A DNA stretch of 64,000 bases from a virus (taxonomy: Duplodnaviria > Caudoviricetes). The stretch spans positions 32,001-96,000 of the IMG/VR virus record IMGVR_UViG_3300037067_007160, one strand, 5' to 3'. The notes under the pieces were generated by a model. The model saw only the letters and a program-made list of their open reading frames with translations, had not been told where the DNA came from and ran no database searches. Every line of letters starts with the position of its first letter. Position 1 is the first letter of the stretch. A program made the position numbers and the translations under genes. Of this stretch, positions 2,798 through 22,200 are shown piece after piece.

Positions 2798-3424
2798 GTG
2801 ATTGAAGAGAGCATGATACGCAAGTGGAAAAAGATGTATGGAAGAGTATTCCGCTGCGTCATACAAGATGATGTATGGTACTACCGTGCATTGAGACTTG
2901 GAGAAGTAAGAACCGTCTCAATGTGTGAGGATCAGGAGCAAAAAGAACTCATGATCCTAAAGTGTGGTATTATACATCCAAAGATAGAGGATCTGGAAGG
3001 AATAACAGCTGGCGCTGCCGATAGATTAGTGTTACTGATATCGGGTGTTACAGGTGCTGATGAAGAATCCATTCTAAAGAGAGTTTCCGACGAGCGAGAT
3101 AAACTTGGAATAAGTGATGACTACTTGAAGTGGAAGGTCCAGATTATCAAGACTCTTAACTACAATCCCGATGAGGTTGATAGGATGACGATGGACGATT
3201 TCGTACGTGCCATTGTTCTTACAGAAGAAGTGCAGGGAAGACCATTAGTTAGTGTTGGAAAGGATGATGGGACCACTGCACAGCCAGTTGAAGAGGAAGA
3301 AGAGGGTGAACTTGAGAATGTAGATACTAGTACCGCAGCAAATATATCAGAGAGACGACTAAGAGCTAGATACGTAGCGGAGAAGCAGAAAAAGAGAAAT
3401 AGAATTGGAAGAAATTCGAGATGA
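2798..3424 (+). CDS. tail assembly chaperone (paralog of upstream ORF)
   Basis: KWKKMYG..WYYRALRLGE resembles the upstream chaperone; GTG start with RBS GGAGG; overlaps tape measure start. Confidence 0.6.
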   Translation: MIEESMIRKWKKMYGRVFRCVIQDDVWYYRALRLGEVRTVSMCEDQEQKELMILKCGIIHPKIEDLEGITAGAADRLVLLISGVTGADEESILKRVSDERDKLGISDDYLKWKVQIIKTLNYNPDEVDRMTMDDFVRAIVLTEEVQGRPLVSVGKDDGTTAQPVEEEEEGELENVDTSTAANISERRLRARYVAEKQKKRNRIGRNSR

Positions 3425-6400
3425 TATAACGGAAGCCCCCTCACAGCCAGGTCCGACAGTCGCCGGACTATTCGGACGTCTGGCTGCATTCACTATTGCC
3501 GCAGGAGCCACAACAACCCTCCTTAGAAAAGGCTCCAGGATGGCGGCCAAGTACATCACATCAAAGATACCAGCAATAACAAAGTTGGGTGGTAAAGAAG
3601 CTACTGGTAGTCTAGAAGGAATGGCCTCCCAATTTATTCAAAAGACATTTCCTTCCATAGGAAATACAACTCTTTCCCGTGACATTCAGAGTGGAAATCG
3701 AGCCTATCTAAAGTGGGCTGCCTCGTGGAATAGGCAGGATAGAATCTTTAAGGAAGTTAAGTACCTTGAAGAAGGGGCTAGACATGCTGTTGATACAATG
3801 GAAGGAATGTCCAAGGCTACAGACTTCCATTTCAATCGTATGCGGATGCAAACTGCTGACTTCTTCGCTCGTCCAGGTCTTGGGCAAAGAGCAACAGGCC
3901 TCGCCTATCAGTTAACAAAGAAGTCTCTTGCTGGTAATGCTGGAGCCTATGTTGCAGATCAGGCGATGAACATCTTTAGTGAACCAGGTGAAAGAACTGG
4001 TCCAGCTTGGTACAATCCTGTCGGTCATGCCATTAACTTCGCAAAGTTCACTGCACAGAACCTACCATATGGTCTTATGTTTAGTGGCGGTCTTGGTTAT
4101 GCAGCCAAGATGGGTGCCGAAGCTGGTATTGGCAGTCTTAAGTTTCTCACTCATGATGTAATTGGAAAGGCAAATACACAGAGGGCCTTGGCACGTACTG
4201 CCGCTGGAGCTGACTGGATCTTCAAAGGTCTAGCTGGTCTCCACACTGCAGCAAGACAATCAATGATACGATCCCAGGCGGTCCTTCCACAAGATGTAAT
4301 GTCACTTCAGTTCTTCAAAAAGGCGATAAATCCAACTACCTGGGTTGATTTTGCACGAGAAGGAATGGCAGGATGGAAGAAGGGACTTGGACTTGCTAAG
4401 AAAGGGGGAAGTACAGACCTCCAGTTTGATGCTGAGATAAAAAATCTCATCACACGTTCTGCTCATATAAATGAACCACAAGGAAGAGAGACATTCCTTC
4501 GTGATTTCTACACAAGGACCCAGAAAAATAGACAAAGTGCATTCGAATACATCTTTGGTCTTGAGAAGAAGGTTAATTTTGAGTCGGAACTCTCAAGATT
4601 AGCCAACCAATCACTATCAAAGCTAAAACTACCAGGTGGAAACCAAGAAAGACAGGCAGCTTCTGATGCTTTCATGCGTGGATGGAGAGATACATCACAT
4701 CTTCTTGGTAGGATGGGTGTGCAAGTACAACCTGGTGTATATAAGGGTGTTGGAAATGGTGTAATTGATATTAGACCTATTCAACCTCGCCGCATTTTGA
4801 ATAAAGTGGCCGATGTAATGAATATGGCCAGCTTTAGGATACCCGGTATTAATTCTCGCATCAATGTATTTGAAATGTTCATGATTCCAAACCTTATTAA
4901 GAAGACAGCATATGAGGAATGGACTGATGGTGCTGTCTTTCTTGGAACAAATAGGACAACTTCACAGAGAATTGGCCGAAGTAGACTCCTTTCTAGTAAT
5001 AATCCAGATGCAGGAGCACTTATTGAGAATGGTTGGTATGCACCGCAAGGTGGTATTGGTGTATTTGCAGGTGGTGGATTCTACCACTATCAAGATGGTA
5101 GTATAAGACGACTACATACACCAAGAGTAACATATAAGACATTCGCAAAGGGTAGTTGGGGACTTATGGCTGATACAATGGCCTGGCTTGGTGGTAGATA
5201 TCCACAACCACTAAAAGAAACGGAGACTGGTAACAGACCATTTGGTAAGAGAGTTATGGAGGCCCTTGACCTTGACATGACGAACAAGGAAGGTGTCTTC
5301 CGTAGAATTGGATCACATGTAAGAAAGTATGTTTGGTCTCCAGGAAATCCACATCCTAACTTCATATATGATAATATTGCTAATTTTGAACGTAGTGGAG
5401 ACCTAGCATCTGGGCAAGGTTTTGTAAGAGGAATAAAACATCTTGTAGATGATGCAGTTGGTGTATTCTCAAGCGTTAGAACGAAGAGATTTACTGATGC
5501 GATCCTTGGTGGTTCGGCTACAAATCCTAATAACCTTGATGATTTTAGGTATGTTGCTGATCGTGCGCGGGAAGCCCTATCAGAAAGTAATCTACATCCA
5601 TATGTAAGAGATCTTGCTTCATCATGGAACATAAGGAAGATAGTAGATAGGGCAGGAATGGTAGATGATTATAATTCCATCCGTAGGATCATGCTTGAAC
5701 CTGCGGCAGGTGGTAGGAAGAACTATGATCAGATGATAGACTTCCTCTCCATAGATGCATTATCCAAGAAGGATAGTGCTGGAGAGGTAATGACGTATAC
5801 AAATGATCTAGTGAATTCTCTTCAGAGGAAGGGTGAAATAGGAGAATTAGGGGCAGCATCCCTTAGAGTTATATCCTATGGACTCTCAAAGCAACAACAG
5901 AGTACCTTCTTTAAGAATTACCTATCACAGAGAGGAGGAACAATACGTGGCGAGAATCTTCAGGAACTAACTAGATTCCTTAAGACAAACTCAGTTGAGA
6001 GAGATATCAAAACAGTAGCGGGAAAGATATACAAGAATCCTCTTAAGAACTTTATAGACTTAGATGATGCCCCATACAAGTCTGGTATGATATCAAATGA
6101 GTCAAAGATACAAAACCTTAAAGAGGCCCCATTTGTTGCCATTCCATGGACCTCTTCTGGTAGGATGTTATCGAAGGAACTCGCTGCCATAGGTCTATCT
6201 GAGGAAAATGGAGATCCAAGGCCAAAGAGAGCACAAGGTGATATTCTTACTGGGAAAAATATACTTTGGGCTACTGTTGTTCGTAGAATGAGTAACGTTC
6301 TTCAACCATTTGATCTTGGTCTAAATCCTGCTAAGTATAATGGTGGTGGAATATGGAATAAGATAGGTGGACCTGGCACACAGATGTTTATAGAGGGTCT

Positions 6401-9400
6401 TGCCCTCAAACGTGCTGGGGCTATAGCTGGCCTTGCAACAGCCTATAGCATAACTGATAGGCTTGTGGATGTTATGCCTGGACTCCAGAACACTCCATTA
6501 GGCGAGGGACTTACAGTATTTGGTGCTGACCAGTTTGTTAAGGCTAGGATGGGAGTCTCCTGGGCAGCTGATGCTCTTGGTATAACTAGTACGGCTAAAT
6601 ATCTTGAAGGTCTCTTTCCTGGAATGATAGATAGTCCTCTCATGCGGGCGGCCAGGGGCGTTATGGCGCCCCTATGGTTGGCTAATGCCATAGGTCATAG
6701 CGGTGGAGCTACCGGAAAGAGACTACAATGGGGTCTTCTTGGTGGTATGGCTATGGGCGCTGTCCAAGGTTTTGGTATGTTCGATATGACCAAGAACACA
6801 GCTGAACTGAAGGAAATTTACTCAGGTAGAGAAGAAATACCTATTAAACGTGGCCGATGGTGGGAACTTGGTAGTTCCAACTATAGCGGTTCTCGTATAC
6901 GTGGATTCTATCCAAACTGGTATGCTAGGTTAAAGTCACAATCTATGTCCACTCCAGAAGGATGGGGCAGTCCATTAGAGCAGATACTCTACAAACCATG
7001 GCCCCTATTTGACTTTAACCCTCTTGGATGGCTTATGGGAGAACCACATCACTATGCGTACCAGCACTACTATAGCCGCCCATATCCAGAGACTGGTTCT
7101 GCCTTCTATGAATTTCCCTTTATAGGACCAGCTCTCTCTTCTACTCTTGGTAGGATTATGGCGCCACCAAAACAGATGCATAAACAGGAACTATATGCAC
7201 AGTTAGATAAATATGGATACTCTACAGCTGGTGGTTTCTCACAGAGGGTTGGTTCAATTCCTGGAACAAGTGAAATGGCTAGGGCAATGCCTGTCTCCAA
7301 CTTTGGAATAAGACAGACACTTGGAAATCAGTTATACAATATTGAGCAGTTTACTGGTCTATGGGGATTTGGCCTTCAGACGGCAACACAGGAACTGATG
7401 GGTGTCGAGCAACCATATGAAGGTGACAATGTTCTAGAAAATGCTGGAGAAATCACTTCCATGCGCAGGCAGTACTATGATAAGGAACTTGGTGGTCTTG
7501 CTGGTATGAGCGAAGCTTGGCGTCGTTTCCTTCCAAAGAGACAGGCACAGGTCAATAGAATTAATCCACTTCAGAATAGGATGCCAAAGTGGTTACCCGT
7601 TCAGTTCAGAGTTGGAGATGCATACGCAAAGACGCCATGGGGAGAACTAGTTCTTCCTGGGCAAGGATATACTAGTGCTCACGATGTTGAGATGACATAT
7701 CCAGCCTCAGCCGACATGCTCGGTCTCCCACTGGAGGAGACTACCAGAAGAATGTTATCTCTTGGACGACCTGAGCCTATTGGTAGGGAAGAACTGGAGA
7801 ATGTTAATGCGAGGATCAAGGCCGCCGCCGAAGTCTATGAACCATATAACGATGTATCTGGAACATATGATGGAATTATAAGGAAGGGGCGCCGGGCCAT
7901 CCTCCAGAAGATTAAGAACTTCAATAGTCAAGAACTAACTGATGTTGTAGGCCCAACTGAAACAGATATCTCAGAAGTAAACTTCTATATGAGGATGGCT
8001 GGCGTATCTGAGGGTATTATTCAGTATAGAATCGATGGTGTTCCTGCACTTGCCTATCCTGTTCGCTATGATGAACAACGTTTTCAAAAGGATATGGATA
8101 TAGTCAATAGAGCTAGAAGAAAGGCTGCTGATCTATATGCAAAGGGTGTTGGTTTTGAAGGAATGGGATATAGTCATCTTGATAGGGCAAGTATACTCGC
8201 TAATGTAGCTCCGTATAGTAATGAATTTAAGCAAGAGTTAGCAATGGCTAAACAATCTGTTAAGATTGGAAAGGGTGATGTAAATAAATTAGAGAAGATA
8301 AAGAAACATGCCAATGCTATGAAGATGGCCCAAGAATTCTATCCAAGAAGATTTCTTGGAAAAGTTATGACACCTGATGCAGCCTTCAACAATATGTCTC
8401 TCAATGAGTATATGAAGGCTGCTGCCGAATACTCGCTACCAGAAAGGGCTCTTGGTGCACTATGGGAAGGTTTTAACTCTCTTAATCATCCATTTGATAA
8501 GTTTCACTCCTATAAGACACCATTAGATGCCTATAAGGCTGATACACTGTATGGTAGACGTATCAAGATGTGGCAAAGTCCTACTGAACACTGGCTCGAC
8601 TCTATGGAGAGAGGGTTCATGTCAAAGGATGATCCAATGAGTGGTTATCTTGCTGGCTTCATTGGTGGTTATGTGTTTGGTGGTGGATCAGCTGGATCAT
8701 TTCTAATGTCTGGTATAGGTGCTGCCTATGGTACTGTCCATGGTCTATATAGAAAAGTTACAGGATCTACATATATCCCCGGAACGGTACAGGAGACAAG
8801 GAATGTGAATAGATACTTTGACCAGATGAACTACCAGAAAGATATGTTACTTTATGAAATGACCGGAAATAATGAGTATCTAGAAGGTGCTAGAAGTACA
8901 ATGACAGGTATTAACCCCAGTGATTTGTCTCGTCAGTCATGGGCCCGTTTCTATAGGGCAACCCCTTATCAAGAGAAACCATATATTATGTCCTTCCTTA
9001 GGGAAACTGATCAGACTGAGCGAAGGAAGATACTCGAAGTTGTTCCTTCTGATGTTGGAGATGTTCTCGCTTCGAAGTGGGCAAAGATGGATGGTCTTAG
9101 TTATGATAGAGAAATGACTAAACGATCAATGGCGAAGATGCCACCTCCTGAATGGGCAGGATGGGCACCAGAGGTTAATCTTGATGACGTTGAACTCAAG
9201 ACTGTAGAACAAATGGGTTTCGAAAAACATGACTTTGGTCTAGGTTGGTATGAGCAAGAGAGGAGGATTAGAAATTCTCCTGGTATTCCTGGTCCCATTA
9301 ACATGAGGGACCCAGGAAATATGGCAACAATAAGCAATACTCCACTCTTCAATCAGTCTGAGGTAAGAAGGTCGATAGAGAGAGCACTAGAAGGTATGGG

Positions 9401-9464
9401 TGTGCAAGCATTTATATCTATAGGGCCATCTTATAGTGATAACCAACTCACTGTGATAGGATAA
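3405..9464 (+). CDS. tail tape measure-like protein (2019 aa) with internal PD-(D/E)XK-like segment
   Basis: Very long Ala/Gly-rich ORF with hydrophobic helices, directly after the chaperones; segment VSGTYDGII..KIK..VNFYM. Confidence 0.7.
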   Translation: MEEIRDDITEAPSQPGPTVAGLFGRLAAFTIAAGATTTLLRKGSRMAAKYITSKIPAITKLGGKEATGSLEGMASQFIQKTFPSIGNTTLSRDIQSGNRAYLKWAASWNRQDRIFKEVKYLEEGARHAVDTMEGMSKATDFHFNRMRMQTADFFARPGLGQRATGLAYQLTKKSLAGNAGAYVADQAMNIFSEPGERTGPAWYNPVGHAINFAKFTAQNLPYGLMFSGGLGYAAKMGAEAGIGSLKFLTHDVIGKANTQRALARTAAGADWIFKGLAGLHTAARQSMIRSQAVLPQDVMSLQFFKKAINPTTWVDFAREGMAGWKKGLGLAKKGGSTDLQFDAEIKNLITRSAHINEPQGRETFLRDFYTRTQKNRQSAFEYIFGLEKKVNFESELSRLANQSLSKLKLPGGNQERQAASDAFMRGWRDTSHLLGRMGVQVQPGVYKGVGNGVIDIRPIQPRRILNKVADVMNMASFRIPGINSRINVFEMFMIPNLIKKTAYEEWTDGAVFLGTNRTTSQRIGRSRLLSSNNPDAGALIENGWYAPQGGIGVFAGGGFYHYQDGSIRRLHTPRVTYKTFAKGSWGLMADTMAWLGGRYPQPLKETETGNRPFGKRVMEALDLDMTNKEGVFRRIGSHVRKYVWSPGNPHPNFIYDNIANFERSGDLASGQGFVRGIKHLVDDAVGVFSSVRTKRFTDAILGGSATNPNNLDDFRYVADRAREALSESNLHPYVRDLASSWNIRKIVDRAGMVDDYNSIRRIMLEPAAGGRKNYDQMIDFLSIDALSKKDSAGEVMTYTNDLVNSLQRKGEIGELGAASLRVISYGLSKQQQSTFFKNYLSQRGGTIRGENLQELTRFLKTNSVERDIKTVAGKIYKNPLKNFIDLDDAPYKSGMISNESKIQNLKEAPFVAIPWTSSGRMLSKELAAIGLSEENGDPRPKRAQGDILTGKNILWATVVRRMSNVLQPFDLGLNPAKYNGGGIWNKIGGPGTQMFIEGLALKRAGAIAGLATAYSITDRLVDVMPGLQNTPLGEGLTVFGADQFVKARMGVSWAADALGITSTAKYLEGLFPGMIDSPLMRAARGVMAPLWLANAIGHSGGATGKRLQWGLLGGMAMGAVQGFGMFDMTKNTAELKEIYSGREEIPIKRGRWWELGSSNYSGSRIRGFYPNWYARLKSQSMSTPEGWGSPLEQILYKPWPLFDFNPLGWLMGEPHHYAYQHYYSRPYPETGSAFYEFPFIGPALSSTLGRIMAPPKQMHKQELYAQLDKYGYSTAGGFSQRVGSIPGTSEMARAMPVSNFGIRQTLGNQLYNIEQFTGLWGFGLQTATQELMGVEQPYEGDNVLENAGEITSMRRQYYDKELGGLAGMSEAWRRFLPKRQAQVNRINPLQNRMPKWLPVQFRVGDAYAKTPWGELVLPGQGYTSAHDVEMTYPASADMLGLPLEETTRRMLSLGRPEPIGREELENVNARIKAAAEVYEPYNDVSGTYDGIIRKGRRAILQKIKNFNSQELTDVVGPTETDISEVNFYMRMAGVSEGIIQYRIDGVPALAYPVRYDEQRFQKDMDIVNRARRKAADLYAKGVGFEGMGYSHLDRASILANVAPYSNEFKQELAMAKQSVKIGKGDVNKLEKIKKHANAMKMAQEFYPRRFLGKVMTPDAAFNNMSLNEYMKAAAEYSLPERALGALWEGFNSLNHPFDKFHSYKTPLDAYKADTLYGRRIKMWQSPTEHWLDSMERGFMSKDDPMSGYLAGFIGGYVFGGGSAGSFLMSGIGAAYGTVHGLYRKVTGSTYIPGTVQETRNVNRYFDQMNYQKDMLLYEMTGNNEYLEGARSTMTGINPSDLSRQSWARFYRATPYQEKPYIMSFLRETDQTERRKILEVVPSDVGDVLASKWAKMDGLSYDREMTKRSMAKMPPPEWAGWAPEVNLDDVELKTVEQMGFEKHDFGLGWYEQERRIRNSPGIPGPINMRDPGNMATISNTPLFNQSEVRRSIERALEGMGVQAFISIGPSYSDNQLTVIG

Positions 9465-12400
9465 TGGCTAGAGAAGAAGATAACCTTAATGGTATAGAGA
9501 TAGCGATGCGAACCGGGGCCGGACTTGGCCTTGGTTATGCTGCCATCCATGCATATCGATCAGACTATCAGGGGATGAAGAGATCATTTCTTGGTATGAA
9601 TCTATCACCTACCATAAAGAGGGCCTTTACCCGCATTTGGCAATTCTCAGGTGAGTTCTTTGAACACATAAACATGGAAAAGTCACTTAGTCTTCCAATA
9701 TATATGCAGGAGATTAAGAATGATTTTGAAATAACGCGAGTTATAGAGGAAATCAATAGAAAAAGGTCGCAAATTCAGGACATATTCCTTGGTGCATCCG
9801 ATGCTATAGAGAATATAAGGGCAACTGCCCTAGTAGAAGGTATAAATCCTGAACATCTAGTTCCAATGCTCGGAGAATTTAGCACCTTTAGAAACAACTA
9901 CTTTGGTAGAGCTCTTTGGAGAGCTGAAGTTCTCACTGAATCAACATTTAAGGGAAGGTCAGCTGCTGTTGAAACTGGAAGACTTGAATCTCTACGAGTT
10001 GATGAGTTAGAGTCTATAAATCAACAGTTAAAAATCGTTAGGGATAGGGCAAGACAACTAGAATATAATATACGTGGAGCAAAAAATGATATTCAGAGAA
10101 TAGTAAACCTCTCTACATCAAAAATGGGTGGTGTAAGTGAACAAAGGACTTCTGAAATTATTACTGACAAGATGCAGAAGATAAGAGAAAGGATAGATGC
10201 AACGACAAGGACAATAGGTGGACTTGCCGACCTAAGACCAACATCAAATCCAGTTCCACAGACACCAAACTTCAAATTCTGGACAATAGGTGGCGATATT
10301 CGTGATCTCAAATCACAAATATCAAATCAAAGGTTAATAGGTAGGGAGGGGTTGCACACAATCTCCACTGTTGTAAAACAGATGTATGATGATCCACTTC
10401 TGACAAAGAATATTATTGGTCCAGAAAAGATTGCTCAGAGAAAGACAGAGGAAAGACTCGTTCGAAGAGAATTCATGGCGAACATACGTGATTCTATTAG
10501 AGATCTACAAAGGACTGGAATCTTTTCCTCTGTAGAAGTTGGTGTTACAACAGAAGCCATGGATGAAGTTGTTATTAGAGCCACAAAGAGAGGTGGTGGA
10601 GAACTTCTCATTCCATTGGCCATAAATATACCAAAGACAGAGGCAGGAATACGATATGCACGACGCGGAGGAAAGACATTCTTCCAGCCATTCACAAAAC
10701 AGAGAAACATTTTGCTTGAGCAGTCAAGACAGGCATCATATATGTTATCGGATCCAGCCTTTCTTCCTCAAGATATCGATGAGAGGGTAAAAGACTCTCT
10801 TGATTCAATCTTTGATAGAATGATGTTACCATCTAAGACAACATTAGTAGATGCAGTGCAAAGTGCTCAGGTAAATCAACGACTTACCCATCAAGAATCT
10901 GAACTTTTTATGGGAGCTTGGGATTCTTTTAGAAAAATACAGAAAGTAAAGATGGGTAGAGGAAGTATATTACATATAGATCTTGAGGGTGACCAAATTG
11001 GTTGGTCTTTAATGGACTGGAAAGGACAACCTATTGATGGTTACCACTTCGCTATTGGTACAGGTGCTGTTGCTAAGACACCAACACATCTTCGATCAAA
11101 ATCCCTAGGCGGACATAATATCGTCCAGGAAATAGGCGAGAATGAATTGGATAAGGTTGTTGATGCTCTTCATAAGACTATTATGAAGTCCTATGGTAAA
11201 CCTATCCGGATTGCAAGTAAAGCATATGGATTATTTGATAAAGAAAAGCTAAATGCCTTACTTACAGAAGTCGATAAACGCTCAATGGGTGGCAATCCTA
11301 AGATTGCGGCTCTTAAGGCCGCCCTATCATCAGATAATGTCATTGAAATCAATAACTTACCACGTATGAATGGCGAAACACTACAGGTAAAGGGCGTACA
11401 ACTCTTCCGTATTATGTCCAGACACCTAAGGAATAAACCGAAGTTGCGTGCACAGATGGAACAACTAGTAAAGAAGGTTGGAATTCCTTCCTTTGATGAG
11501 ATCGGTCAGATGGTGGTCGAACAGGGACATCATACGGCCTTTATGGATGCCTATATGCAGGGTATCTATGTTGAATTCACAAGGATGCTTCAAAAGAAGG
11601 ATAGAAGGGCTGTAGAACGCGAGTTCAAGAAGATAAAGGAAGGTTTTCTACCAGATAGACTTACTGTAGGTCTCTATCATAGTGAACTCTCCCATCTAAG
11701 GCGTCTGAACGTCTCTCCATCAGCTAGCATTCATGGAAAGTTGGATACAAGTGGTAGCATGCTAACAAATCCATTTCCAGATCAAAGGCCAGGCCATGAA
11801 TATAGGCAAATTCCATCTATGCAACTTAGGAGTATATCAGATCCTGTTACGAGAAGAAGAATTCAAGATGAGTATAGAAGACTTATGGATGCAGGAATTG
11901 AACCTGATCTAAATCAGATACTAAAGCGTGAATTGAATGAAATACATACGAAATCCTTGGTTCTTATTGATCCTGGCGGAACTCGTTACATGGCAAAGGA
12001 TGATTTTGGATTTTCAGATCCTCTTATGAAATCTTCTACTTGGGCTGAGGCCTATGAGGAAGTTGTTGATAAGGGATCTAGTATTGAATTTGGTATAAAG
12101 GAGGGTGCTGAGGTCTCAACTGGTGGATTTGTTGGCCTACGTCGGGATGAACCAATTGCTTTTAAGTCAAGAAAACATACCCAGAAAGGTATAGTTACTT
12201 CCATTATAGATAATAAGGATGGAACGGAGACTATCGTTATTAATAGAATTAATAAGTTAGGATGGGGAATTCCTGTTGTTGTTGGTGGTTCTCAGGCGGC
12301 AACTGTTACAAGATCCATGGATGACTATCTACCACATATTGGTGGTGACTTCAGTTCATTTCGATTGGCTGCATATGCTGAGAAGAATAACCCTGGCGCC

Positions 12401-15400
12401 GTTATGTCAGACATGCTCGCTCTTATGTTTCATCACTCTGGAATGGGCCCAAATGCAATAGTAAAGAATGATATTCTGACAAAGATAATTATGAAGAAGA
12501 TGGGTGCTGATCCAAAGGATGCTAGAAGGACAAGGTTTCCAATGGTAAGAGATACTCTTAGTGGAATGATGAAACCAGATGTAAGAGGAAGAGAATACTG
12601 GTACGAGAACTTCAAAGACATGGATATTGGTAAAATTGTCGAGATTAGCGAGGAGTATAAGAGACAGGTTACCGCTCTTGGAGATTCCTTTACTGGAAGT
12701 CGGCTTATTTTCGATGAAATTCATAAGGTAATGGGTAGGAGTGAGATACGTGAGACACAGGACAAAGTCCTAAGATCCTATGGTATGCTTATGGGCCAGA
12801 AAGGATATATAGAGGCAAATGTGAAGATAGCTTCACATAATATGGGTCGTCCTATTAGTGAGAGTGCTATAAAGTCTAGAGTAAATGATGTAAGGAGAGT
12901 CCTCGAGAGTGGAGATGTCAAATCTGCCATTGCCCTCATGAGAAATGATATTAAAATAGGAGAAGTGGATGATATCTTAGAGCAGTTACCAGCCCACTTT
13001 GGTTTTGTACGTCATAGGGAAGATCTTGATGCTAGACTTACATGGTCACCAGCCACCGTAAGCTGGGATTCTGTTGTTGCCCGTGACTTTGATACTATGA
13101 GTGGTCTTGGTGAGTTGAAACAACTTAATATTAGCATGGCCACTCTTGAGCAACTCTCACCTTTACGGGATAGCAAGGGTCTCTTGGATATTCTTCGAAC
13201 AGGCATCTATAAGAGTGATCCAATTAAGACATATAGGATGTTTCCATTTTCATTTCTCTCCTCTAAGGAGACCTTATCTGGATTCAGACGAGTATCTAGA
13301 AATGATGTTACAAAACATCTCAATAAGTTCCTCGATAGGTGGATGTCTCTACCAGAGACAACAAGAATGGGTAACTTCAATGGTTGGATACCAAAGGATG
13401 CTGTTTATAACCTAAATGGAAGTTGGATGACAAGAGAAGCAGCCCAATCTCACTATGGTATGACATCAATTGAGTTTGATGAAGCCGTTCGTGATGGAAA
13501 GGCTACTTTGGTCGATCCAACTGTCCTAAAGAGTCGTCTAAGAGTTGCTTCTGATGTAGACCAGATGAGAAGAACTAGCATGCAACCATTTTCAGTAGAA
13601 TTTGGTAGGGATGCTAGACTTTCCGTTGAAGCAAGATGGAGTAAGACAAATGTTAATATAGAGCGTCTTCTTATTACACAAGCATCGAGAGAAGACTACT
13701 TTCCTGTCGATATGGTAGGCCCTGGGGGTAAAAAGCAACGTTATCTCATTGAATCTCCCATCCAGACCAAGACAAGAGAGGTCCTACGTCATATTCTATC
13801 TGGCGCCTTCGTAAATCCACGAGATGGTAACACAGGTGGCCCTGTTCTCCAGGAGTTAATGGATCTCTACCAGGACTATACTGTGAAACTCAATTTGAAG
13901 ACCTCCCTGGCAACCTCTATGGTCCCTGTTGTCCGTTTCCATGGAAGTACGTTATTTACCGACCTTCCTCAACTATCTGGTGGAGTAACGACCAAAGAAG
14001 AGGCTATGAAGGTCATGATGGGCGTCTTTGGTACAAAAGAGATGGATTCCAAGATGTTTCTTCGAAGAAGAGGTGTAATGCCAAGAAAAGAAGGATTCAT
14101 AGTTGGTGTCAATGAAAGAGATGTTGATAAATGGATAGGAAACGTCTTTTCAACCCTATCTTCTGATGATATTAAGGCAATGGCCAATCGATTCCTTGGA
14201 AACGTAAAACTTGGTAATAAGAGTGGGATAAATCCAAGTCTATATACTCTACGTCATATGGCTGAATTTGGACCGGCCGATGGAAAGAATTTTGCCTCAA
14301 ATGCTCTTGGTATGATCCAAAATATAGCTAGTTCTAAGGTTACTGGAGATGCTGCTAGAAAAGGCTGGCTTGATCTAGTACTAAAGGGAGTTACTCCTCT
14401 ATCAATGGGCGGACTGAAATTTCCTCTTGCTGACCAAGGCAAATTCGTAGGTGAGGACTTCTATAAGGCTATGGCCTATGGTCAGGATAGGAAGAATCTT
14501 GCTTCTAGAATGGCCATTGGTGGAAGTCCTGTAGGTGTCATGCCTTCTGCGGCCATGTTCCAGGGAACGATCGATACAGACGGTGACTTCCTTGCCTTCA
14601 TGCTAGGTGAAGGTGTAACAGAGAAGGTCCTTAAGATTATGGAGTCTAATACCTTCTTTTCTGAGATTAATCCTATTGCTCAGGTCGTAGGTACGGAGAA
14701 GGGTATGGTCCAACTTTATGATACAGTAAATAATGAGTTTATCAAGCGACCTATGGGTGTAACAACTCACTTTACGGGGTTAAACAAGGCAGAGTCTGTA
14801 CAGGCCGAGTTATGGACCAAGCAGGCGGCCGGTAAGATCACAATCTTCTCTGAGAACATAGGTCAATATATGTCACGAGTCCTATCTCATAGGGGAAGTG
14901 GACTTGCGACGGATCTTGGCCAGGAAACAATGTCAAAGATGAGACTGCAGTTGAGAGAGTGTATGGGTGCCCTTATTGAAGGTGGCGCCCTTAAGGGTAA
15001 GTCTTCAAGTAGTGCTGGATCTGATGCCATGATCGAATTCTTCGATAGACTCTCCCATGAATCAGGGGTAAAGGAGTTTATGGGTGAGGTGGAGACTATT
15101 GTCAGAAATGGAGATCCAAGTGATGTAAAGGTTGGAATGTTCAAGAAACTTCTATCTCCTATAGTCGGTTTACAGGATGTCTTCGAAGGAACAAAGGGAA
15201 TGGACTTTGGGGATGTTATGATCCAGGCAGCTAGAGGAGGTCGGGCACTTGGAAGTCTATCAGCCGAGGAAATACTTGTAGGTACATCACATAGGGCAAA
15301 GGATACATATAAGGGCCAGATGGTAGATGCCATGCGTAATATCCTTCCGGACATTCCTACTCACTTTACACCATGGAAGCAGGAGGGTGTCCTCACGGCC

Positions 15401-15838
15401 ATGAAGAGGAACATAACAAATGACTTAAGTGAACAACAGTGGAGAAAGGTATCAAAAGGTATGGGATGGGCGGCTGCTGCTGGAGCTGTCTTCCTTGCCT
15501 CAAATATGTTTAGGTCAGATGATAACCAGTTTCTTGGAGATAGACCTGGCTTCGGTGGAGAGGCTAGAGACTTTACCTTCACGCGTCCTGAGTATGAAAT
15601 GGGAGGACTTCTTGATACACCATATAAGAATCCATGGAGTAAGAGTAGGGCATACGTAACAATGGCCAATCCTTCAATGAACCAGAAGATGCAACAGTTA
15701 TCTAGAAAAGAGGAGCAAGATATAAGGACTTTCCATGAGGTTATGGGTCTTGAAAAGACTAGAGTTTCGTCATCCTTTAATTATGGAAAACGTGACCTAG
15801 CCGGCTATAGACAGCTTCTCGAAAGATACGGACAGTGA
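9464..15838 (+). CDS. giant virion protein (2124 aa); candidate two-barrel RNA polymerase with DEDDh exonuclease-like domain
   Basis: IDLE/FD/HTAFMD exonuclease-type motifs (aa ~506-695); KFP..VGVMPSAAMFQGTIDTDGDFLAFM (aa ~1704); located in the tail module. Confidence 0.6.
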   Translation: MAREEDNLNGIEIAMRTGAGLGLGYAAIHAYRSDYQGMKRSFLGMNLSPTIKRAFTRIWQFSGEFFEHINMEKSLSLPIYMQEIKNDFEITRVIEEINRKRSQIQDIFLGASDAIENIRATALVEGINPEHLVPMLGEFSTFRNNYFGRALWRAEVLTESTFKGRSAAVETGRLESLRVDELESINQQLKIVRDRARQLEYNIRGAKNDIQRIVNLSTSKMGGVSEQRTSEIITDKMQKIRERIDATTRTIGGLADLRPTSNPVPQTPNFKFWTIGGDIRDLKSQISNQRLIGREGLHTISTVVKQMYDDPLLTKNIIGPEKIAQRKTEERLVRREFMANIRDSIRDLQRTGIFSSVEVGVTTEAMDEVVIRATKRGGGELLIPLAINIPKTEAGIRYARRGGKTFFQPFTKQRNILLEQSRQASYMLSDPAFLPQDIDERVKDSLDSIFDRMMLPSKTTLVDAVQSAQVNQRLTHQESELFMGAWDSFRKIQKVKMGRGSILHIDLEGDQIGWSLMDWKGQPIDGYHFAIGTGAVAKTPTHLRSKSLGGHNIVQEIGENELDKVVDALHKTIMKSYGKPIRIASKAYGLFDKEKLNALLTEVDKRSMGGNPKIAALKAALSSDNVIEINNLPRMNGETLQVKGVQLFRIMSRHLRNKPKLRAQMEQLVKKVGIPSFDEIGQMVVEQGHHTAFMDAYMQGIYVEFTRMLQKKDRRAVEREFKKIKEGFLPDRLTVGLYHSELSHLRRLNVSPSASIHGKLDTSGSMLTNPFPDQRPGHEYRQIPSMQLRSISDPVTRRRIQDEYRRLMDAGIEPDLNQILKRELNEIHTKSLVLIDPGGTRYMAKDDFGFSDPLMKSSTWAEAYEEVVDKGSSIEFGIKEGAEVSTGGFVGLRRDEPIAFKSRKHTQKGIVTSIIDNKDGTETIVINRINKLGWGIPVVVGGSQAATVTRSMDDYLPHIGGDFSSFRLAAYAEKNNPGAVMSDMLALMFHHSGMGPNAIVKNDILTKIIMKKMGADPKDARRTRFPMVRDTLSGMMKPDVRGREYWYENFKDMDIGKIVEISEEYKRQVTALGDSFTGSRLIFDEIHKVMGRSEIRETQDKVLRSYGMLMGQKGYIEANVKIASHNMGRPISESAIKSRVNDVRRVLESGDVKSAIALMRNDIKIGEVDDILEQLPAHFGFVRHREDLDARLTWSPATVSWDSVVARDFDTMSGLGELKQLNISMATLEQLSPLRDSKGLLDILRTGIYKSDPIKTYRMFPFSFLSSKETLSGFRRVSRNDVTKHLNKFLDRWMSLPETTRMGNFNGWIPKDAVYNLNGSWMTREAAQSHYGMTSIEFDEAVRDGKATLVDPTVLKSRLRVASDVDQMRRTSMQPFSVEFGRDARLSVEARWSKTNVNIERLLITQASREDYFPVDMVGPGGKKQRYLIESPIQTKTREVLRHILSGAFVNPRDGNTGGPVLQELMDLYQDYTVKLNLKTSLATSMVPVVRFHGSTLFTDLPQLSGGVTTKEEAMKVMMGVFGTKEMDSKMFLRRRGVMPRKEGFIVGVNERDVDKWIGNVFSTLSSDDIKAMANRFLGNVKLGNKSGINPSLYTLRHMAEFGPADGKNFASNALGMIQNIASSKVTGDAARKGWLDLVLKGVTPLSMGGLKFPLADQGKFVGEDFYKAMAYGQDRKNLASRMAIGGSPVGVMPSAAMFQGTIDTDGDFLAFMLGEGVTEKVLKIMESNTFFSEINPIAQVVGTEKGMVQLYDTVNNEFIKRPMGVTTHFTGLNKAESVQAELWTKQAAGKITIFSENIGQYMSRVLSHRGSGLATDLGQETMSKMRLQLRECMGALIEGGALKGKSSSSAGSDAMIEFFDRLSHESGVKEFMGEVETIVRNGDPSDVKVGMFKKLLSPIVGLQDVFEGTKGMDFGDVMIQAARGGRALGSLSAEEILVGTSHRAKDTYKGQMVDAMRNILPDIPTHFTPWKQEGVLTAMKRNITNDLSEQQWRKVSKGMGWAAAAGAVFLASNMFRSDDNQFLGDRPGFGGEARDFTFTRPEYEMGGLLDTPYKNPWSKSRAYVTMANPSMNQKMQQLSRKEEQDIRTFHEVMGLEKTRVSSSFNYGKRDLAGYRQLLERYGQ

Positions 15839-15997: not shown

Positions 15998-16278
15998 AGA
16001 AACTCTGCAAGCATTGTATGATAGAAAAAGATTATTGTGAATTTAATAAGAATTCACATACAAAAGATGGTATAAACTATATATGTAAGTTATGTGTTAG
16101 TATATATAATAAGAAATATCATGATCATAATACTGGTAACGTTCATGGTTTACTTTGTAGTTCATGCAACACAGCCATTGGATTACTGTATGATAATCTT
16201 AGTATAGCAGAATCTGTTGTTGCCTATTTGAAAGACCATTTTATTATAACTGTCAAGGACTTCTCTAATGCTAAATGA
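15994..16278 (+). pseudogene. degenerate endonuclease VII-type HNH homing endonuclease
   Basis: CxxC zinc finger then HDHNTGNVHGLLCSSCN; the usual intervening CxxC segment is missing; AT-rich. Confidence 0.65.
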
Positions 16279-19200
16279 TAGGATCAGTCTAGACTACACA
16301 AAGGAACTTGGTGAAGCCTTCGAAAAGGAGAAGGCTTCACGAGGTGCCTTTACAGGTGAAGTTGAGAGAGTTATTGATGGTGATACCTTTGTCCTAGCTG
16401 GTCGCCAGCAACATGTTCGTCTAAAGGGAGTTAATGCACCAGAAAGAAATTGGAGCAAACTAACATCATCCGAGAAGAAAACTCTTGCTGATGTTGATGG
16501 TGAGAATTCCTATAAGGAACTTCAAGATATCCTTGATGGAAAGAGAGTTAAACTCAGTAGTGTAGAGGCACAATCTGGCAAGAATCATTATGGTGAACGT
16601 ATTACTGCCCTAGTATATACATTGGATGGTACTTTTGTCAATGCTGAAATAATTAGAAGAGGATGGGCTGTACCAGAACCAGATTTCGCATCCCAGATAC
16701 CATATGATGAGATGATTATGTTGGATCAGGCTGTAAAGGAGGCAAGGACAAATAAGCGCGGCCTCTGGTCAAAGGACCCTGGTAGCAAACTTCTAGAGCA
16801 ATTCATACCTATTTCACCGACAAATCTTGATCCTATAGACAAACTGGAAGAATACAGAAACATTCCTGGTGCAACTAGGCTAGGAACCATGTGGCTATAT
16901 GTTCCTCCTGCCCAGATAACAATAACAGAACATAACTCTAATGTAGAGTGGCCTACTATGCGCACACCTGGTACGCCACGACTGCGTTCTACTCAACAGG
17001 AACAACGCATTGAAATGGTTGTCATCTTTCCTAATATGTGGAGTATTAACTACCAGTTAAGACCTTTAATTGCTCAGTTCATTAGATCACCATTTCTTCC
17101 ACTTGAAAATGATCATATTAGGAGTATGGTCATGCCAAGTTATCTGAACTCTGTTGAGAGTGTTTCTGAGCAACTTGGATCAAGGTTCGACGATAAAACA
17201 AAGATATCCAAGTTAATAGCAAAACGGCAGGAAGAGGAAGGAAAGAGGATAGCTGAAGATCTTGGAAAGATGTCACTAGGATCCGTGGCTGACAACCAGT
17301 ATCAGGTAAAGCAAAAACCATCAGCAACGAAAGTTGATGATAGACAACTATTTATTGCTCTTAGAAATATCGTAGTAGCAACAATACCAGGAACGCCAGA
17401 AGCTCTCCAAGTAACGTTTACTATGACAGTTTTTAATTACCTACCACATATGGAGAAGGTTGAGTATCTTAGAAAGATGCCAGATCTAGAGAATCAACTT
17501 AAGTATCTTCAGATCATTGCTAATATGCGATTTCCAGATACTGTTAATAAACAGGCCCTCAACATAATAAATAGTTGTGGAACAACGACGAATGCATCAG
17601 ATAGCGAACCTTTCAAACGCTACTATAAAACTCTTCTTTCTGAGACACAGATAGGACAGACTGCTACTCCTGTATCATGGGTAAAAGGCATGATGCCTCG
17701 TCTCTCTCCTCTACAGTCTTCTAGTATGTATAGATTCAAGTTTATTCTACCAACAAATACACTATCAGCTGAGGATGTTGCTAGAAATCAAGATGAGATT
17801 GGTACATTAGAGACGCTTATTCAGAATAAGATAACAGAAGCTATAAGGGCTAGAACGAGAAAATTACTTGGAAATGATCTTGTAAATGATACAGTAGGTC
17901 AATTACTTAAGTCAACTACGGCCGTAATGAGAATATATAGTGACTTTCTTGTAAGAGAACTTCCAAGATCAGTAAAGAACTTTGAAACAAAACTATCTAA
18001 TAAGGAAAGTTTCTCTGTTAGTTTTGGTGACTATCTTGATGCAAATTCGACCGACCTACTTACATCCATCAAAGGTACTATGCTTACTGATAAGTCAACT
18101 GCCTATGATATTCTAAAGGCTGCCATTGGTGACGCTATAATAGGAGCTGATGATATCATACGGGCCACAAAGAGAATATTTGAACTTGATAGTAGGAATG
18201 TTGTGGGAACAAAGGGAACAACAATGGAAGTTGTTGTTGAAAACAACGGAAGTACAACCATAACAGGAGCCAGTGCCACATTCTCTCCTACCATAGTTCC
18301 TATCTCCATAGTTGACCATATTATGCCATCCTGCCAATTCTTAGGAAGAAGTGACTGGATGATGTCGATCAATCTTATGACAAATGACTTTACGCTTGTT
18401 CGAAGGCTTGCCACAATGAGCCAAGTTGGAAGATTAAGTCAGATAGCGAATGAACGGTCTGGGATTAGGTGGTTCATGGTTAAACTAAACTCTACAATGG
18501 TCCCAATGCTTCCAAATGCCAATGGTCTATTTTCCTACCTAGGAATAAGTAGAGTCCTATTTGAGGACTGCGTCTACGAATCAGTGAAGGAAAAGCCAGG
18601 TTGGTTTAATGTATCTCTTAGATTAGTGCAATCAGATATCGATATGGCCGAGTATGAGAGTCTGATACCAACGAACAAAGTAAGAGCTGAGGTTGTTAGA
18701 AGCATAATAAATAACATTGCTAGTGGAACTGTTTCATCTAACAAGAATAAGACAGTTCAAAGAATGTTTAATACTGTCAAGGCCGTTTTTAGACAGTCTA
18801 TGAAGATCTTTAGCACTCTCAGTCTAGTCGATGCAACTGAAGAGGATATCGATGAGCTATCAGATATGCCTGAAGTAATAGGTGGAACCATACGGGCAAT
18901 GGATAATCTTGAGAAATGGTCAGAACATGTGAAGAAACTTCTCATAAGTAAGGATAATAGATACTTTCAAACTGACACACATATTTCTGGTAATGATGTT
19001 GATGGATACGCCATCATTAAAGACGAGGACACAAGTGCTCCTTGGTTCTTTGATGAAAGAGCTCGTATATCCAGACTTACCTTCCAACAGGCGATAAACT
19101 CGGCTGTCATAACTGCTATAGCAACAGATCCAGAAGGAATACTTGAGATATACGATCCAACATTAGCTAAGGCTTCCGAAAGTCAGAGAATGCATGCTAT

Positions 19201-22200
19201 AAAACTTCTAACCTTTTCCAGTGATATAAGGACGACAAGTCCACTTCATGGTTGTTATCCAGATCTTGAACTTCCCTCATATACAGTAGATCCACTTATC
19301 GTTGGTCCAGACTTCTTCTACAAAAAGGAAGAGAGGATTGCTCCAGAAGCAACAAGGATCGTATCAGATAGATTGGAAAGCCTATATAAGAATGCCCTAT
19401 CGACAATGGGTAGAGTAAAGGCCACTGGAGAAGTTGGAAAGAAGGCAGAAGAAGCAATGAATAGCCTTCCAGGAGACATAATACCTGACATCCGCCTATA
19501 TTCTCTTTATAAACAAGTGAAGGAACAACAAGGATCCGAGGAAATAGTAAATAGTAGTGGGTCTAGTGCGGACGAAGTATATAAGAATGTCAAAAGAATA
19601 ATGGAATCTGGAAAGATAACAATGCCTTCCGATGAGGAGGATAAGACTCTTATAGATGAACTAGATGCCCAAGAATACGCAAATGTATCGGCTAAGGAAC
19701 AGGTATCAATGTATCGTGTATCTCTTGCCTTTAGGATAGCAACTCTTCAGGACATGATTAAGCAAGGAGCGGAGAAGGAAGAGTCTGTTCGCTATCTAAC
19801 AAAACAGAGGGATACGTTACTTGAAGAGTACAACGCAATACCAAAGTATGCCTCAGTTGGTACGGATGCTATGCAAAATATATGGGGAGTTGCTACTCCT
19901 TCAACTATAAAGAGAAGCTATCTTTATATGCAAAAGGCAGCCGAGGCCAAAGTCCTAAGGGCTAGGTCTGAGGAAGTATCTGGATCGCTAGCTAGGGTAT
20001 ATCCTACCATGAAACTCTACTTTATTGAAGAGGATCCTCACGAGTGGCAACTCTTTGATGACTACTATGAGTACTCATCCATTCGTAGTGCCCAGGTAGT
20101 GATGTCCGATGATTCAGCTTCAAAAGTGGCAACAATTCAGATATCTAACATTACACAAAGACTAACGGACGCAAAACCTGGTCTTACTGAAGTCTCATCA
20201 GCTGATCAAACTTCACAGGAACAAACTCTTACCTCATTCCTTCTTAGAGAAGGAATGACAATTATGATTAGAATGGGTTATAGTAATGATCCTTTACTTC
20301 TAGAAAGAGTATTCTTTGGAAAGGTTGTCTCGGTCTCTCCTGGTGATACGATACAGATAGTAGCTCAGTCCTTTGGTGCGGAATTCATGTCACAAGTATT
20401 TAATGGAGAGGAAAGAAATCTTGGCTATCTTGGCACAACACGTAGTCATGGAGATGTCCTATCAGTAGCCATGAGTGATATGGATGGGCTTGACCACTTT
20501 GGTAATAGAAATTGGTTAGAAATGCTTAGATTGAAGGATCCGACATTCGCCAGCCCAACCTTTGAAGGTTTTGCCTATAGCAATCCAAAGTATAAGAAGT
20601 GGGACTACTATACATCTATCATTAATCCAATTAAGAAACTTATACAGTTTGGTGTGTATGATCCTAGATTTGAGAATATGTATATTCCATTTAGTGGTAA
20701 CACTTGGAGTGGAACAGCTCAGATAGCAATGACAGCAATGGCAGCAAGCGTTGGAGCGCCAGCAGCACTTCTTGCTTTTCCTGCATATATAACAGCCAAA
20801 ATAATGGGAAAGGAAACACCATCACTCTCAAAGGCTAAAGGAGATGAGTGTTTCGACTGGTATACGACTCCTGGAACTACACTATGGGATATGATGCAGG
20901 AAATGGCTCTCTACTATGAAGATTACATAGTAACTACCCTACCGTATAATGAGGATATTGCAGGCTGGCAGAGGGAGACAATCTATATTGGTCCACGAAG
21001 TGGATACTATAAGTATACTGAGCGATTTGATGATGAGAAGACAGCATCTGATATGTTCAAGAAGAATAAAGAGATGTACGATCTTCCACTTGAATTTTCG
21101 GATAGTAATCGTGCGAAACAAAAGCAAATGGTGTTGCAAAAGATGGCAGAAGATAGGGGAATGAACGGTGGTATCACCGATGGAAAGATCATTACATATA
21201 GTGTAAGAAATGTAAGCGATCCATTTATAACGACCAGAGATGATGCTGGTGTAGTTGTAGCAACGAACTACGGTGGTTCCTACCATCCTTCATACGGTTA
21301 CTACGTAATTATTGAGATGACAGATAATAGAAGTGTTGAGATCGTCAGAGAGGGAACAAAGAACTATACGATGGTCTATGGCCTATCTGATCCAAAGGAT
21401 CTTGTTGATATTATATTTGTAAATGAAAGTATTGGCCAGGGTCAGACACTTGGATATTGCGATACCAACGTGAAGCAGATATTTATCCAGCCAAAAACAG
21501 CTGCTATTCCAAATATAAATACAGTATGGGGCAACTATATTAATATGGTAGAGAAGAATGTTGACTATGAACTTAAACAGTTCGTATCTGTCTCCTCTGA
21601 TGCCACAGTAAAGACATCAATATTAGGATTACCAGTTAATGCTAATGTATCAGATGTAACAAGAACAAGACCTAGTGAGTCTCAAAAAGATGCTGCGAAG
21701 TATACTATTAATATAAAGAACCCTGAACATATTATAGATTCTGAAGGAAAACCAGCTAAGGGATATGCTTCAGTCGTAAATTACCACTGGGTTGATAGTC
21801 GACATGATATTATAGAAAACACAATAATGGCAACAGCAGAGAATCTCCATAATAAGGTTACCATTAGATTTCCTGATGATCCGGGTTCTGGTACAGATAA
21901 TGAGTTTACTATGGTTGCTGATGACAATATAAAACCAGGAAATCTACGCCATCTCATTGTTAAGGCACCAAATATCGATCCTGTTTCATGGGAGTTTGGC
22001 CAGAAGTTCTATCAGCTTGTTATGAAGAATCCTCTTAGGGCTGTCCCTAGTGTTGGTATTATGCCGGCAAAATATACAGTTACGGCAAATATCCTCGCTA
22101 ATGAAATGAGGAAGATGTATGGTGGATATCTGAGAATCTGGGGCCGACCATCTATCAAACCCTTTGATGTTGTATATATGAACGATATGAGCAATCAGAT

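Follow-up and report, generated by a model that had tools for sequence, protein, structure and literature searches.

Virion-packaged two-barrel RNA polymerases are an already known kind of phage protein, represented by gp96 of Thermus phage P23-45 and gp66 of phi14:2, a crAss-like phage. The former is the published precedent for a virion RNA polymerase borne on a giant tail protein (PMC10770324): a tape-measure-fused two-barrel enzyme (PDB 8H2M/8H2N) of 5,002 aa, from a phage with a non-contractile tail. Its polymerase is N-terminal, it includes a metallopeptidase as well as membrane segments, and it lacks an exonuclease. P23-45 also encodes gp64, a separate, non-virion single-chain two-barrel polymerase. 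The crAss-like gp66 is a virion-packaged single chain of 2,180 aa (PDB 6VR4), in which a divergent acidic motif, DFDID at 1361, lies amid ~1,600 aa of unknown domains. In the literature, missing detectable similarity between two-barrel RNA polymerase families is usual.

P0001 is a 2,124-aa protein of an uncultured jumbo phage, encoded by a gene (9464–15838, + strand; open for 2,124 codons) in the 64,000-nt stretch of DNA analysed here (the window, to which all positions refer). A preliminary description had proposed that it is an injected RNA polymerase with its own exonuclease domain, and the ORF and all the motifs named there were found in place. Like gp96, P0001 occupies the tape-measure slot, has a conserved DxDGD motif and lacks detectable sequence similarity to other RNA polymerases, and it shares its phage with a stand-alone single-chain two-barrel polymerase, here P0012. 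Unlike gp96, its candidate polymerase module, predicted from sequence alone, is C-terminal, the tail is contractile, and the slot is filled by three separate giants. It is near gp66 in size, but gp66 is part of a podovirus-like crAss virion, lacks exonuclease motifs and shows no sequence or profile similarity to P0001. That P0001 is a virion RNA polymerase-exonuclease is plausible but unproven, with the chances for and against about equal.

The tail module and its relatives

Genes for three giants of ~2,000 aa fill the tape-measure slot in a contractile-tail module, and the P0001 gene is the middle one. The module runs from a sheath-like DUF2586 gene through two tube-like paralogs, small genes and the three giants to Baseplate_J. 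With the tail tube/chaperone genes on one side and the baseplate hub on the other, the P0001 gene has the place of one for a tail-lumen or tape measure protein. Giant 1 (3405–9464, +; 2,019 aa) has no family match in Pfam or PHROGs, and corresponds in position to 0305phi8-36 gp145 and ME3_35; its stop codon has one base in common with the ATG of the P0001 gene. Giant 3 (16268–23023, +; 2,251 aa) combines an N-terminal SNase with a baseplate-hub/lysin-like C-terminal part (Pfam SNase, 7.6e-8; phrog_20474, 4.9e-57), and its tblastn matches are the baseplate hub giants of 0305phi8-36, WH1, KLEB27-3 and ME3. The tail-lumen/hub block ends downstream with a Baseplate J-like wedge gene (24123–25325, +; phrog_6, 1e-42), and Baseplate_J is also called in the homologous loci. 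By BLASTP, none of the three giants is a paralog of another.

The phage is not crAss-like, and is distantly related to the jumbo myoviruses of the 0305phi8-36 group. Its tail gene order is common to Bacillus phage 0305phi8-36, WH1 and Acinetobacter ME3, with KLEB27-3 also syntenic; module order and synteny together bear out the earlier assignment of P0001 to the tail module. The slot of P0001, between giant 1 and the SNase/hub giant, is occupied by 0305phi8-36 gp146, WH1 gp095, KLEB27-3 gp034 and Acinetobacter ME3_36, and in ME3 giant 1 and the middle giant show the same 1-nt start/stop overlap as here. These four middle giants range from 1,603 to 2,537 aa, do not resemble P0001 significantly in sequence or profile, and their records label them tape measure, structural or hypothetical rather than polymerase. 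A note in the GenBank record of gp146 states that mass spectrometry places the protein in the virion. Both gp146 and WH1 gp095 carry DxE-type exonuclease motifs, as does P0001, but at different places.

Three of the four (WH1, KLEB27-3 and ME3) have an R-x-P...DHD[GQ]D arrangement at 76–80% of their length, the corresponding motif in P0001 lying at 80%. At the motif spot, Pfam RNA_pol_Rpb1_2 is touched by KLEB27-3 (E 0.0045) and WH1 (E 0.036), both below the curated cut-off. Alignment with hhalign places both P0001 anchors in register with the R-Y-P...DHDGD of the WH1 and KLEB27-3 giants, at a non-significant E of 0.2. By motif scan, gp146 has neither a DxDxD nor the R-x-P...DHD[GQ]D arrangement.

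The genomic setting also accommodates a different role, judged rather unlikely, in which P0001 is an ejected tail-lumen or tape-measure-like protein whose DxDGD is a structural or regulatory metal site (for example, for calcium), and whose sole enzymatic cargo is a nuclease acting with the SNase of giant 3 against host or competing DNA. The tape-measure slot itself, the annotation of the 0305phi8-36 counterpart as a hypothetical tape measure, its lack of DxDxD by scan, and the SNase domain of giant 3, which makes nuclease cargo a theme of this locus, are all consistent with such a role. The recurrence of R-x-P...DxDxD in three of four syntenic giants, two of them touching an RNA polymerase family in Pfam, argues against it.

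A small family with sparse invariant positions

The P0001 family is small, comprising nine sequences (eight full-length and the partial L011) after searches of protein sets of ~5.8 billion and 1.8 billion entries and of metagenome contigs. A profile search of 1.84 billion representatives recovered only four family members, the other matches being a repeat protein and a 101-aa fragment, and scans of viral, metagenome and genome contigs together with a shorter-fragment search added one sequence, the fragment L011. No match was obtained by tblastn of P0001 against 50,697 phage records. Pfam and PHROGs gave no polymerase or exonuclease match for P0001 or any of the eight family members, PDB sequence and profile searches with P0001 returned nothing relevant, and its hydropathy profile revealed no strong transmembrane segment.

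In an alignment of eight homologs with 28–66% identity, 142 of the 2,124 columns (6.7%) are invariant, among them D1704, D1706, D1708, K1652, P1654, K1660 and T1785-K-Q-x-A-G. As so few columns are invariant, and yet the acidic triad and K-x-P are among them, the conserved motif pattern exceeds chance. The best-conserved part of P0001 is the C-terminal tail (aa 1980–2124; 15401–15835, +), with 15–22 invariant columns per 60, which opens with a hydrophobic glycine/alanine-rich stretch. It bears a weak likeness to the C-terminal tail of 0305phi8-36 gp146 (E 0.045), and to an internal stretch of ME3_35 (aa 983–1062 of 1,263; E 0.067).

The candidate polymerase module

The candidate beta-prime-type barrel spans aa 1645–1725 (14396–14638, +), and contains K1652-F-P1654 (KFP; 14417–14425), K1660 and then DTDGD (aa 1704–1708; 14573–14587). 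Its metal-binding-type DxDxD loop (D1704, D1706 and D1708) does not vary in any of the eight full-length members or in L011, at identities as low as 28%, and neither does K1652-x-P1654, fifty residues upstream. Of the two points on which the preliminary description had staked its case, double-psi barrels around aa 1704 and conservation of DxDGD in homologs, the latter holds for the triad in 9/9 sequences; in its middle position the loop has T, A, K, S or V, as opposed to the usual aromatic residue. The local pattern in P0001 consists of a basic residue-x-P, ~35–50 aa, a small residue, DxDxD and alternating hydrophobics; by motif comparison, the same beta-prime barrel signature is seen in gp96, gp66, gp64 and P0012. 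When the 130-kb genome is read in six frames and ORFs of 100 aa or longer are considered, DxDGD is seen three times: in P0001, in P0012 and in a 105-aa ORF. The acidic triad is retained even in the three members without any exonuclease residues, and this persistence marks an indispensable function of P0001.

Two further regions may complete the module. A candidate second (beta-type) barrel would be expected at aa 1466–1552 (13859–14119, +), which holds invariant K1475, P1488, G1537, G1544 and G1548, and lies ~170–230 aa from the acidic loop, a distance resembling that in P0012 (220 aa). K1475 is its sole invariant basic residue, with R1536 present in 6/8. Beyond the loop, conservation has its second-highest peak at aa 1775–1850 (14786–15013, +), where 11–12 columns per 60 are invariant and T-K-Q-x-A-G, D-L-G-Q and L-K-x-K occur; this block includes TKQAAGKITIF (aa 1785–1795; 14816–14848), and seems to occupy the place of the bridge helix and trigger loop.

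Fold and profile comparisons gave no corroboration. No significant match of P0001 to any RNA polymerase was found with Pfam, PDB profile search or hhalign, including against gp64; in hhalign comparisons of the family with gp96, gp66, P0012, gp146, gp145, WH1 gp095, ME3_35/36 and the WH1/KLEB27-3 pair, the best E values were a non-significant 0.045–0.2. P0012, a verified polymerase, likewise fails such sequence and profile tests. An AlphaFold model of aa 1380–2124 built with eight sequences had a mean pLDDT of 38.6, an unusable low confidence at which no barrel appeared around the loop, and Foldseek with this model gave a best E of 0.65, which is meaningless and as expected for such a model. 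A language-model atlas yielded no usable match for aa 1440–1900.

These results bear again on the possibility of a structural metal site. D-x-D-G-D resembles calcium-binding loops, and the want of a polymerase fold or profile match would be natural for a tail protein of that kind. Against this, the strongest conservation outside the C-terminal tail falls at aa 1770–1860, just after the loop, which is active-site-like rather than spacer-like; moreover, the nuclease residues, the only enzymatic cargo on that account, are dispensable in 3/8 members and the acidic triad never.

The DEDDh-like exonuclease region

The DEDDh-like motif region (aa ~495–700; 10946–11563, +) has the Exo I D-x-E, the Exo II D and the Exo III H-x4-D all present in the correct order: D506-x-E508 (10979–10987) within IDLE (aa 505–508; 10976–10987), D591 (11234–11236) within FD (aa 590–591), and H690-x4-D695 within HTAFMD (aa 690–695; 11531–11548). 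It resembles DnaQ/RNase T-type DEDDh exonucleases in motif order and H-x4-D spacing (D506-x-E508, D591 after A-x-x-x-F, and H690-x-A-x-x-D695-A), whereas the ~100 aa between motifs II and III is longer than in DnaQ. The motifs are co-present in five of eight members and co-absent in the other three, and the second-motif residue is E in three members. Members keep the whole DxE/D/Hx4D set or none of it, and the tree shows two independent losses; in this the set behaves like a catalytic unit.

Profile evidence is again lacking: Pfam, including RNase_T, gave no match in this region, and hhalign returned E 0.13–0.42 against E. coli DnaQ (0.42), RNase HI and the gp146 exonuclease region. A language-model search gave weak leads (0.78–0.79) to RuvC/Pox_A22-type RNase H-fold nucleases; a RuvC-type assignment was set aside, as both acidic residues of D-x-E come and go together with H-x4-D, and H and D are spaced by 4 rather than 2. 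The earlier proposal of an injected RNA polymerase with an exonuclease domain therefore stands in part: it keeps the tail position, the invariant loop and K-x-P, and the exonuclease motif set, but has gained no profile match to a polymerase or to a DnaQ-like exonuclease.

The presence of exonuclease motifs and an acidic loop on one chain raises the question of whether the C-terminal module is instead another nucleotidyl transferase, DNA polymerase-like or primase-like with a DTD/DxDxD metal site, paired with the exonuclease for proofreading. DEDDh exonucleases normally accompany DNA polymerases (DnaQ, PolC), motif C of family B has DTD, and family C palms have DxDxD. This is nonetheless improbable: neither a further family B or C motif nor a Pfam match turned up, the glycine of DxDGD and the K-x-P fifty residues upstream suit a two-barrel signature better, and loss of the exonuclease residues in 3/8 members means that the two are not an obligatory proofreading pair.

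A second RNA polymerase in the same phage

P0012 is a 742-aa protein encoded outside the window, and is verified, on the strength of its predicted structure, as a QDE-1/P23-45 gp64-like single-chain two-barrel RNA polymerase. The model is confident (pLDDT 88) and matches gp64 with a Z of 11.9 over 411 residues, and the protein has canonical motifs, including a clear G-D-K-x4-K second-barrel motif. Homologs of both proteins, P0014 (of P0012) and P0003 (of P0001), occur on one 132-kb contig. A repeated promoter-like motif was looked for in the minus-strand block around P0012, and none was found.

So complete and confidently folded an enzyme could be the only RNA polymerase of the phage, either packaged or made from host-transcribed early genes, with P0001 having lost, or never had, a catalytic role in transcription. 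A parallel exists in 0305phi8-36, reported with one YonO-like polymerase (PMC7824862). There is only a slim chance that this is correct, given that it leaves the invariance of the P0001 acidic triad and K-x-P unexplained, and that virion and non-virion two-barrel polymerases coexist in P23-45.

A proposed role for P0001

A polymerase role for P0001 is favoured by the invariance of the triad and K-x-P, the retention of the triad without the exonuclease, the beta-prime signature, synteny, the presence of gp146 in the virion, the gp96 and gp66 precedents, and P0012. Weighing against it are the missing fold or profile match, the non-aromatic loop residue, the lack of an assignable second-barrel basic pair, and the chance that P0012 is sufficient.

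Under the proposed mechanism, P0001 would be a tail-lumen giant, produced with the tail, packaged, and on infection expelled into the host. The C-terminal third (~aa 1450–1850) is most probably a single-chain two-barrel RNA polymerase of a very divergent kind, in which D1704, D1706 and D1708 would bind the catalytic magnesium ions and which would transcribe the first phage genes. By analogy with P23-45, one possible target is the block encoding the stand-alone P0012, giving a putative cascade. The DEDDh-like 3'-5' exonuclease domain, which looks intact here and inactivated in some relatives, would be accessory. It is possible, and tentatively put forward, that a contractile-tailed jumbo phage lineage (Bacillus, Acinetobacter and this uncultured group) loads the tail lumen with a giant combining a two-barrel RNA polymerase and a DEDDh exonuclease, which launches a two-polymerase cascade with a QDE-1/gp64-like enzyme.

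Implications

P0012 makes this phage a candidate for host-RNAP-independent transcription, and provides an internal reference enzyme for biochemical comparison. No exonuclease-RNA polymerase fusion of the kind proposed for P0001 was found in the searchable literature; if the proposal is true, such an enzyme would for the first time have a nuclease partner built in, the cis-linked DEDDh exonuclease, through which an injected transcriptase would acquire 3'-end editing or RNA/DNA-trimming of its own. Whether the exonuclease would serve in proofreading, in primer or transcript trimming, or in attack on host nucleic acids is the question that such a role would raise. If the module is a polymerase, tail-delivered two-barrel RNA polymerases would recur in jumbo myoviruses, beyond one Thermus siphovirus and the crAss group, and such enzymes would be hidden in genes labelled tape measure or hypothetical.

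Genomic setting of the three giant genes

The window spans bases 32001–96000 of a single viral contig of 130,355 bp, for which CheckV estimates a completeness of ~52%; the complete genome is therefore probably ~250 kb, the size of a jumbo phage. Three consecutive giant genes lie within the window: giant 1 (3405–9464; 2,019 aa), with no recognised domain; P0001 (9464–15838, plus strand; 2,124 aa), the candidate virion RNA polymerase and exonuclease; and giant 3 (16268–23023; 2,251 aa), whose N-terminal SNase domain (16415–16774, aa 50–169; Pfam 7.6e-8) is likely a second nuclease delivered by the tail. The start codon (ATG) of P0001 and the stop codon of giant 1 overlap by a single base, and mutual comparison of the three giants found no paralogy. 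Ahead of them lie a sheath-like gene (DUF2586), a pair of small tube-like paralogues and a few other small genes, and small genes followed by a Baseplate_J wedge gene lie downstream. The giants therefore fill the tape-measure, tail-lumen and hub slot of a contractile tail, confirming the tail-module location proposed in the preliminary description, whose motif positions for P0001 also proved exact when checked on the ORF.

Homology links giant 3 to the baseplate hub giants of Acinetobacter phage ME3 and of the Bacillus phages 0305phi8-36, WH1, KLEB27-3 and Edson. The three-giant layout recurs in 0305phi8-36, WH1 and ME3, which have a common gene order (tube paralogues, chaperonins, giant 1, giant 2, hub giant), and in ME3 giants 1 and 2 likewise overlap by one base. 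The positional counterpart of P0001 in 0305phi8-36 is gp146 (L013:9818–17431), whose record names it a hypothetical tape measure protein and notes its detection in the virion by mass spectrometry. The phage is accordingly distantly related to the 0305phi8-36 group and is not crAss-like.

An SNase domain is also present in WH1 gp094. In related contigs, giants 2 and 3 are separated by a small Amidase_2 or Peptidase_M15 gene (L001:16412–17095, L002:10110–10523) and an ORF of ~49 aa; the window has no such gene between them, the C-terminal part of giant 3 being instead longer and lysin-like. Elsewhere in the genome, a protein of the tubulin/FtsZ family whose C-terminal domain is TubZ-like (107852–109105, L009:11852–13105, plus strand; Pfam 7.9e-13 and 4.9e-10) recalls jumbo phages in which a tubulin spindle positions the DNA, and a 1,298-aa GT4 family glycosyltransferase (109598–113494, L009:13598–17494, plus strand) is apparently split by an intein/Hint domain (Intein_splicing 1.5e-10).

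Conservation of P0001 and its exonuclease motifs

Relatives of P0001 comprise five clusters among 5.8 billion proteins, three more found when 1.84 billion representatives were searched with a profile, and one fragment from metagenome contigs. GenBank phages, viral contigs and shorter proteins added none, and every search to deepen the alignment was unsuccessful. Only 6.7% of columns are invariant across the eight full-length sequences (28–66% identity), among them the aspartates of the acidic loop (D1704, D1706 and D1708), three residues lying fifty positions before it (K1652, P1654 and K1660), and T-K-Q-x-A-G, eighty positions after it. The conservation of DxDGD in homologues, which the preliminary description proposed to check, is borne out, the motif being present in the ninth sequence as well. 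Conservation peaks at aa 480–570, 1770–1860 and 1980–2100, and the C-terminal tail (aa 1980–2124; 15401–15835) is the best-conserved part, with up to 22 invariant columns per 60. This tail is faintly similar to that of gp146 and to an internal stretch of ME3_35 (aa 983–1062), and may be a common tail-incorporation or hub-docking element.

The DEDDh exonuclease initially suggested stands as regards its motifs, with D506-x-E508, D591 after A-x-x-x-F, and H690-x4-D695-A fitting in order and spacing. A complete DEDDh-like set occurs in five of the eight members, three of which have E as the middle residue; the remaining three have jointly lost D-x-E and H-x4-D, in two independent events on a fully supported tree. 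Such all-or-none loss is how catalytic residues behave when an activity is given up, and the domain is therefore taken as a real nuclease centre, intact in this phage. As to the putative exonuclease fold, no family member has a Pfam match to an exonuclease, hhalign against E. coli DnaQ reaches only E 0.42, and a language-model search gave weak leads to RNase H-fold nucleases. As gp146 carries a textbook L-D-I-E-T-T-G and likewise has no Pfam match, the Pfam negative is of little weight.

A second, stand-alone polymerase

A DxDxD scan of the whole contig revealed P0012, a 742-aa ORF outside the window (genome 6545–8773, L007:6545–8773, minus strand) in the left-end minus-strand gene block adjoining the terminase region. 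Its loop (DYDGD) belongs to an L-G-K-D-x-D-G-D motif kept in 21 homologues, in which G-D-K-L-x-P-x-K, 220 residues upstream, is also invariant. Searches of Pfam, PHROG and GenBank phages returned no match. The AlphaFold model (pLDDT 88.3, pTM 0.84) retrieved QDE-1 (E 5.6e-8), RDR2 and P74-26 gp62/P23-45 gp64 (~4e-3) in Foldseek; VIA-align gave Z 14.2 for RDR2, 13.7 for QDE-1 over 581 residues and 11.9 for gp64 over 411 residues; residues 164–254 match isolated double-psi barrels; and the top BFVD matches are gp64 and phage proteins named RNA-dependent RNA polymerase. Judged by its predicted structure, P0012 is a genuine single-chain two-barrel RNA polymerase. Homologues of P0012 and P0001 (P0014 and P0003, respectively) share one 132-kb contig. 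0305phi8-36 is reported to have a YonO-like single-chain polymerase (Iyer et al., PMC7824862); stand-alone enzymes of this sort are thus already known from the group. That P0012 is the sole polymerase of the phage is improbable.

The polymerase reading of P0001

Around its acidic loop, P0001 presents a basic-x-P, ~50 aa, P-x-A-A-x-F, a small residue, DxDGD and then alternating hydrophobic residues, a pattern matching that of P0012, of the P23-45 virion and non-virion polymerases (gp96 and gp64) and of crAss-like phi14:2 gp66. It is quite unlikely that the C-terminal module is instead a nucleotidyl transferase of some other type, with the exonuclease as its partner. Profile comparisons of P0001 with gp96, gp64, gp66, P0012 and the Bacillus and Acinetobacter giants gave nothing significant, and the AlphaFold model of aa 1380–2124, built from the eight-sequence alignment, was unusable (mean pLDDT 38.6) and yielded nothing in Foldseek; it counts neither for nor against the barrels around aa 1704 on which the preliminary description made its reading depend. 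In favour of a polymerase, the acidic triad is retained in lineages without the exonuclease residues. Alternatively, the loop could bind metal without any catalytic role, in a tape-measure-like protein whose cargo is a nuclease, a reading with a modest chance of being correct. As a positive control, the structurally verified P0012 was also negative in every sequence test, and the acidic motif is the only similarity that can be detected between two-barrel families (PMC10770324). Similar reasoning led to the discovery of P23-45 gp96, which turned out to be an active virion polymerase fused to the tape measure (PMC10770324). Overall, the chances that the C-terminal module of P0001 is a two-barrel RNA polymerase appear evenly balanced.

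Related middle giants and a possible role in infection

Published annotations of the middle giants gp146, WH1 gp095 (L014:4913–12460) and ME3_36 (L015:8665–13476) call them tape measure, structural or hypothetical proteins, and D-x-E motifs of exonuclease type are present in the first two. An R-x-P...DHD[GQ]D stretch lies at 76–80% of the length of the WH1, KLEB27-3 (gp034, L016) and ME3 proteins, which are otherwise unalignable with P0001, where the loop is at 80%; none was found in gp146. Exactly on this stretch, KLEB27-3 (E 0.0045) and WH1 (E 0.036) match the same region of the same Pfam profile, RNA_pol_Rpb1_2, both below the curated cut-off, and hhalign places both P0001 anchors in register with theirs (E 0.2). 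These correspondences are indirect evidence for the polymerase reading of P0001, and the middle giants of 0305phi8-36, WH1, KLEB27-3 and ME3 may themselves be overlooked virion polymerases. Fusion of virion polymerases to giant tail or virion proteins is already published (P23-45, crAss); a full-text literature search yielded no paper in which such an enzyme is joined to an exonuclease.

Beyond its encoding in the tail module, we infer each step by which P0001 might act. It would be built into the tail lumen, possibly anchored by its strongly conserved C-terminal tail, and be expelled at infection. Its C-terminal module would then transcribe the first genes. These may be those of the minus-strand block containing P0012, and P0012 would take over afterwards as in P23-45. 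The exonuclease could trim the 3' ends of transcripts or primers, or attack host nucleic acids together with the SNase of giant 3.
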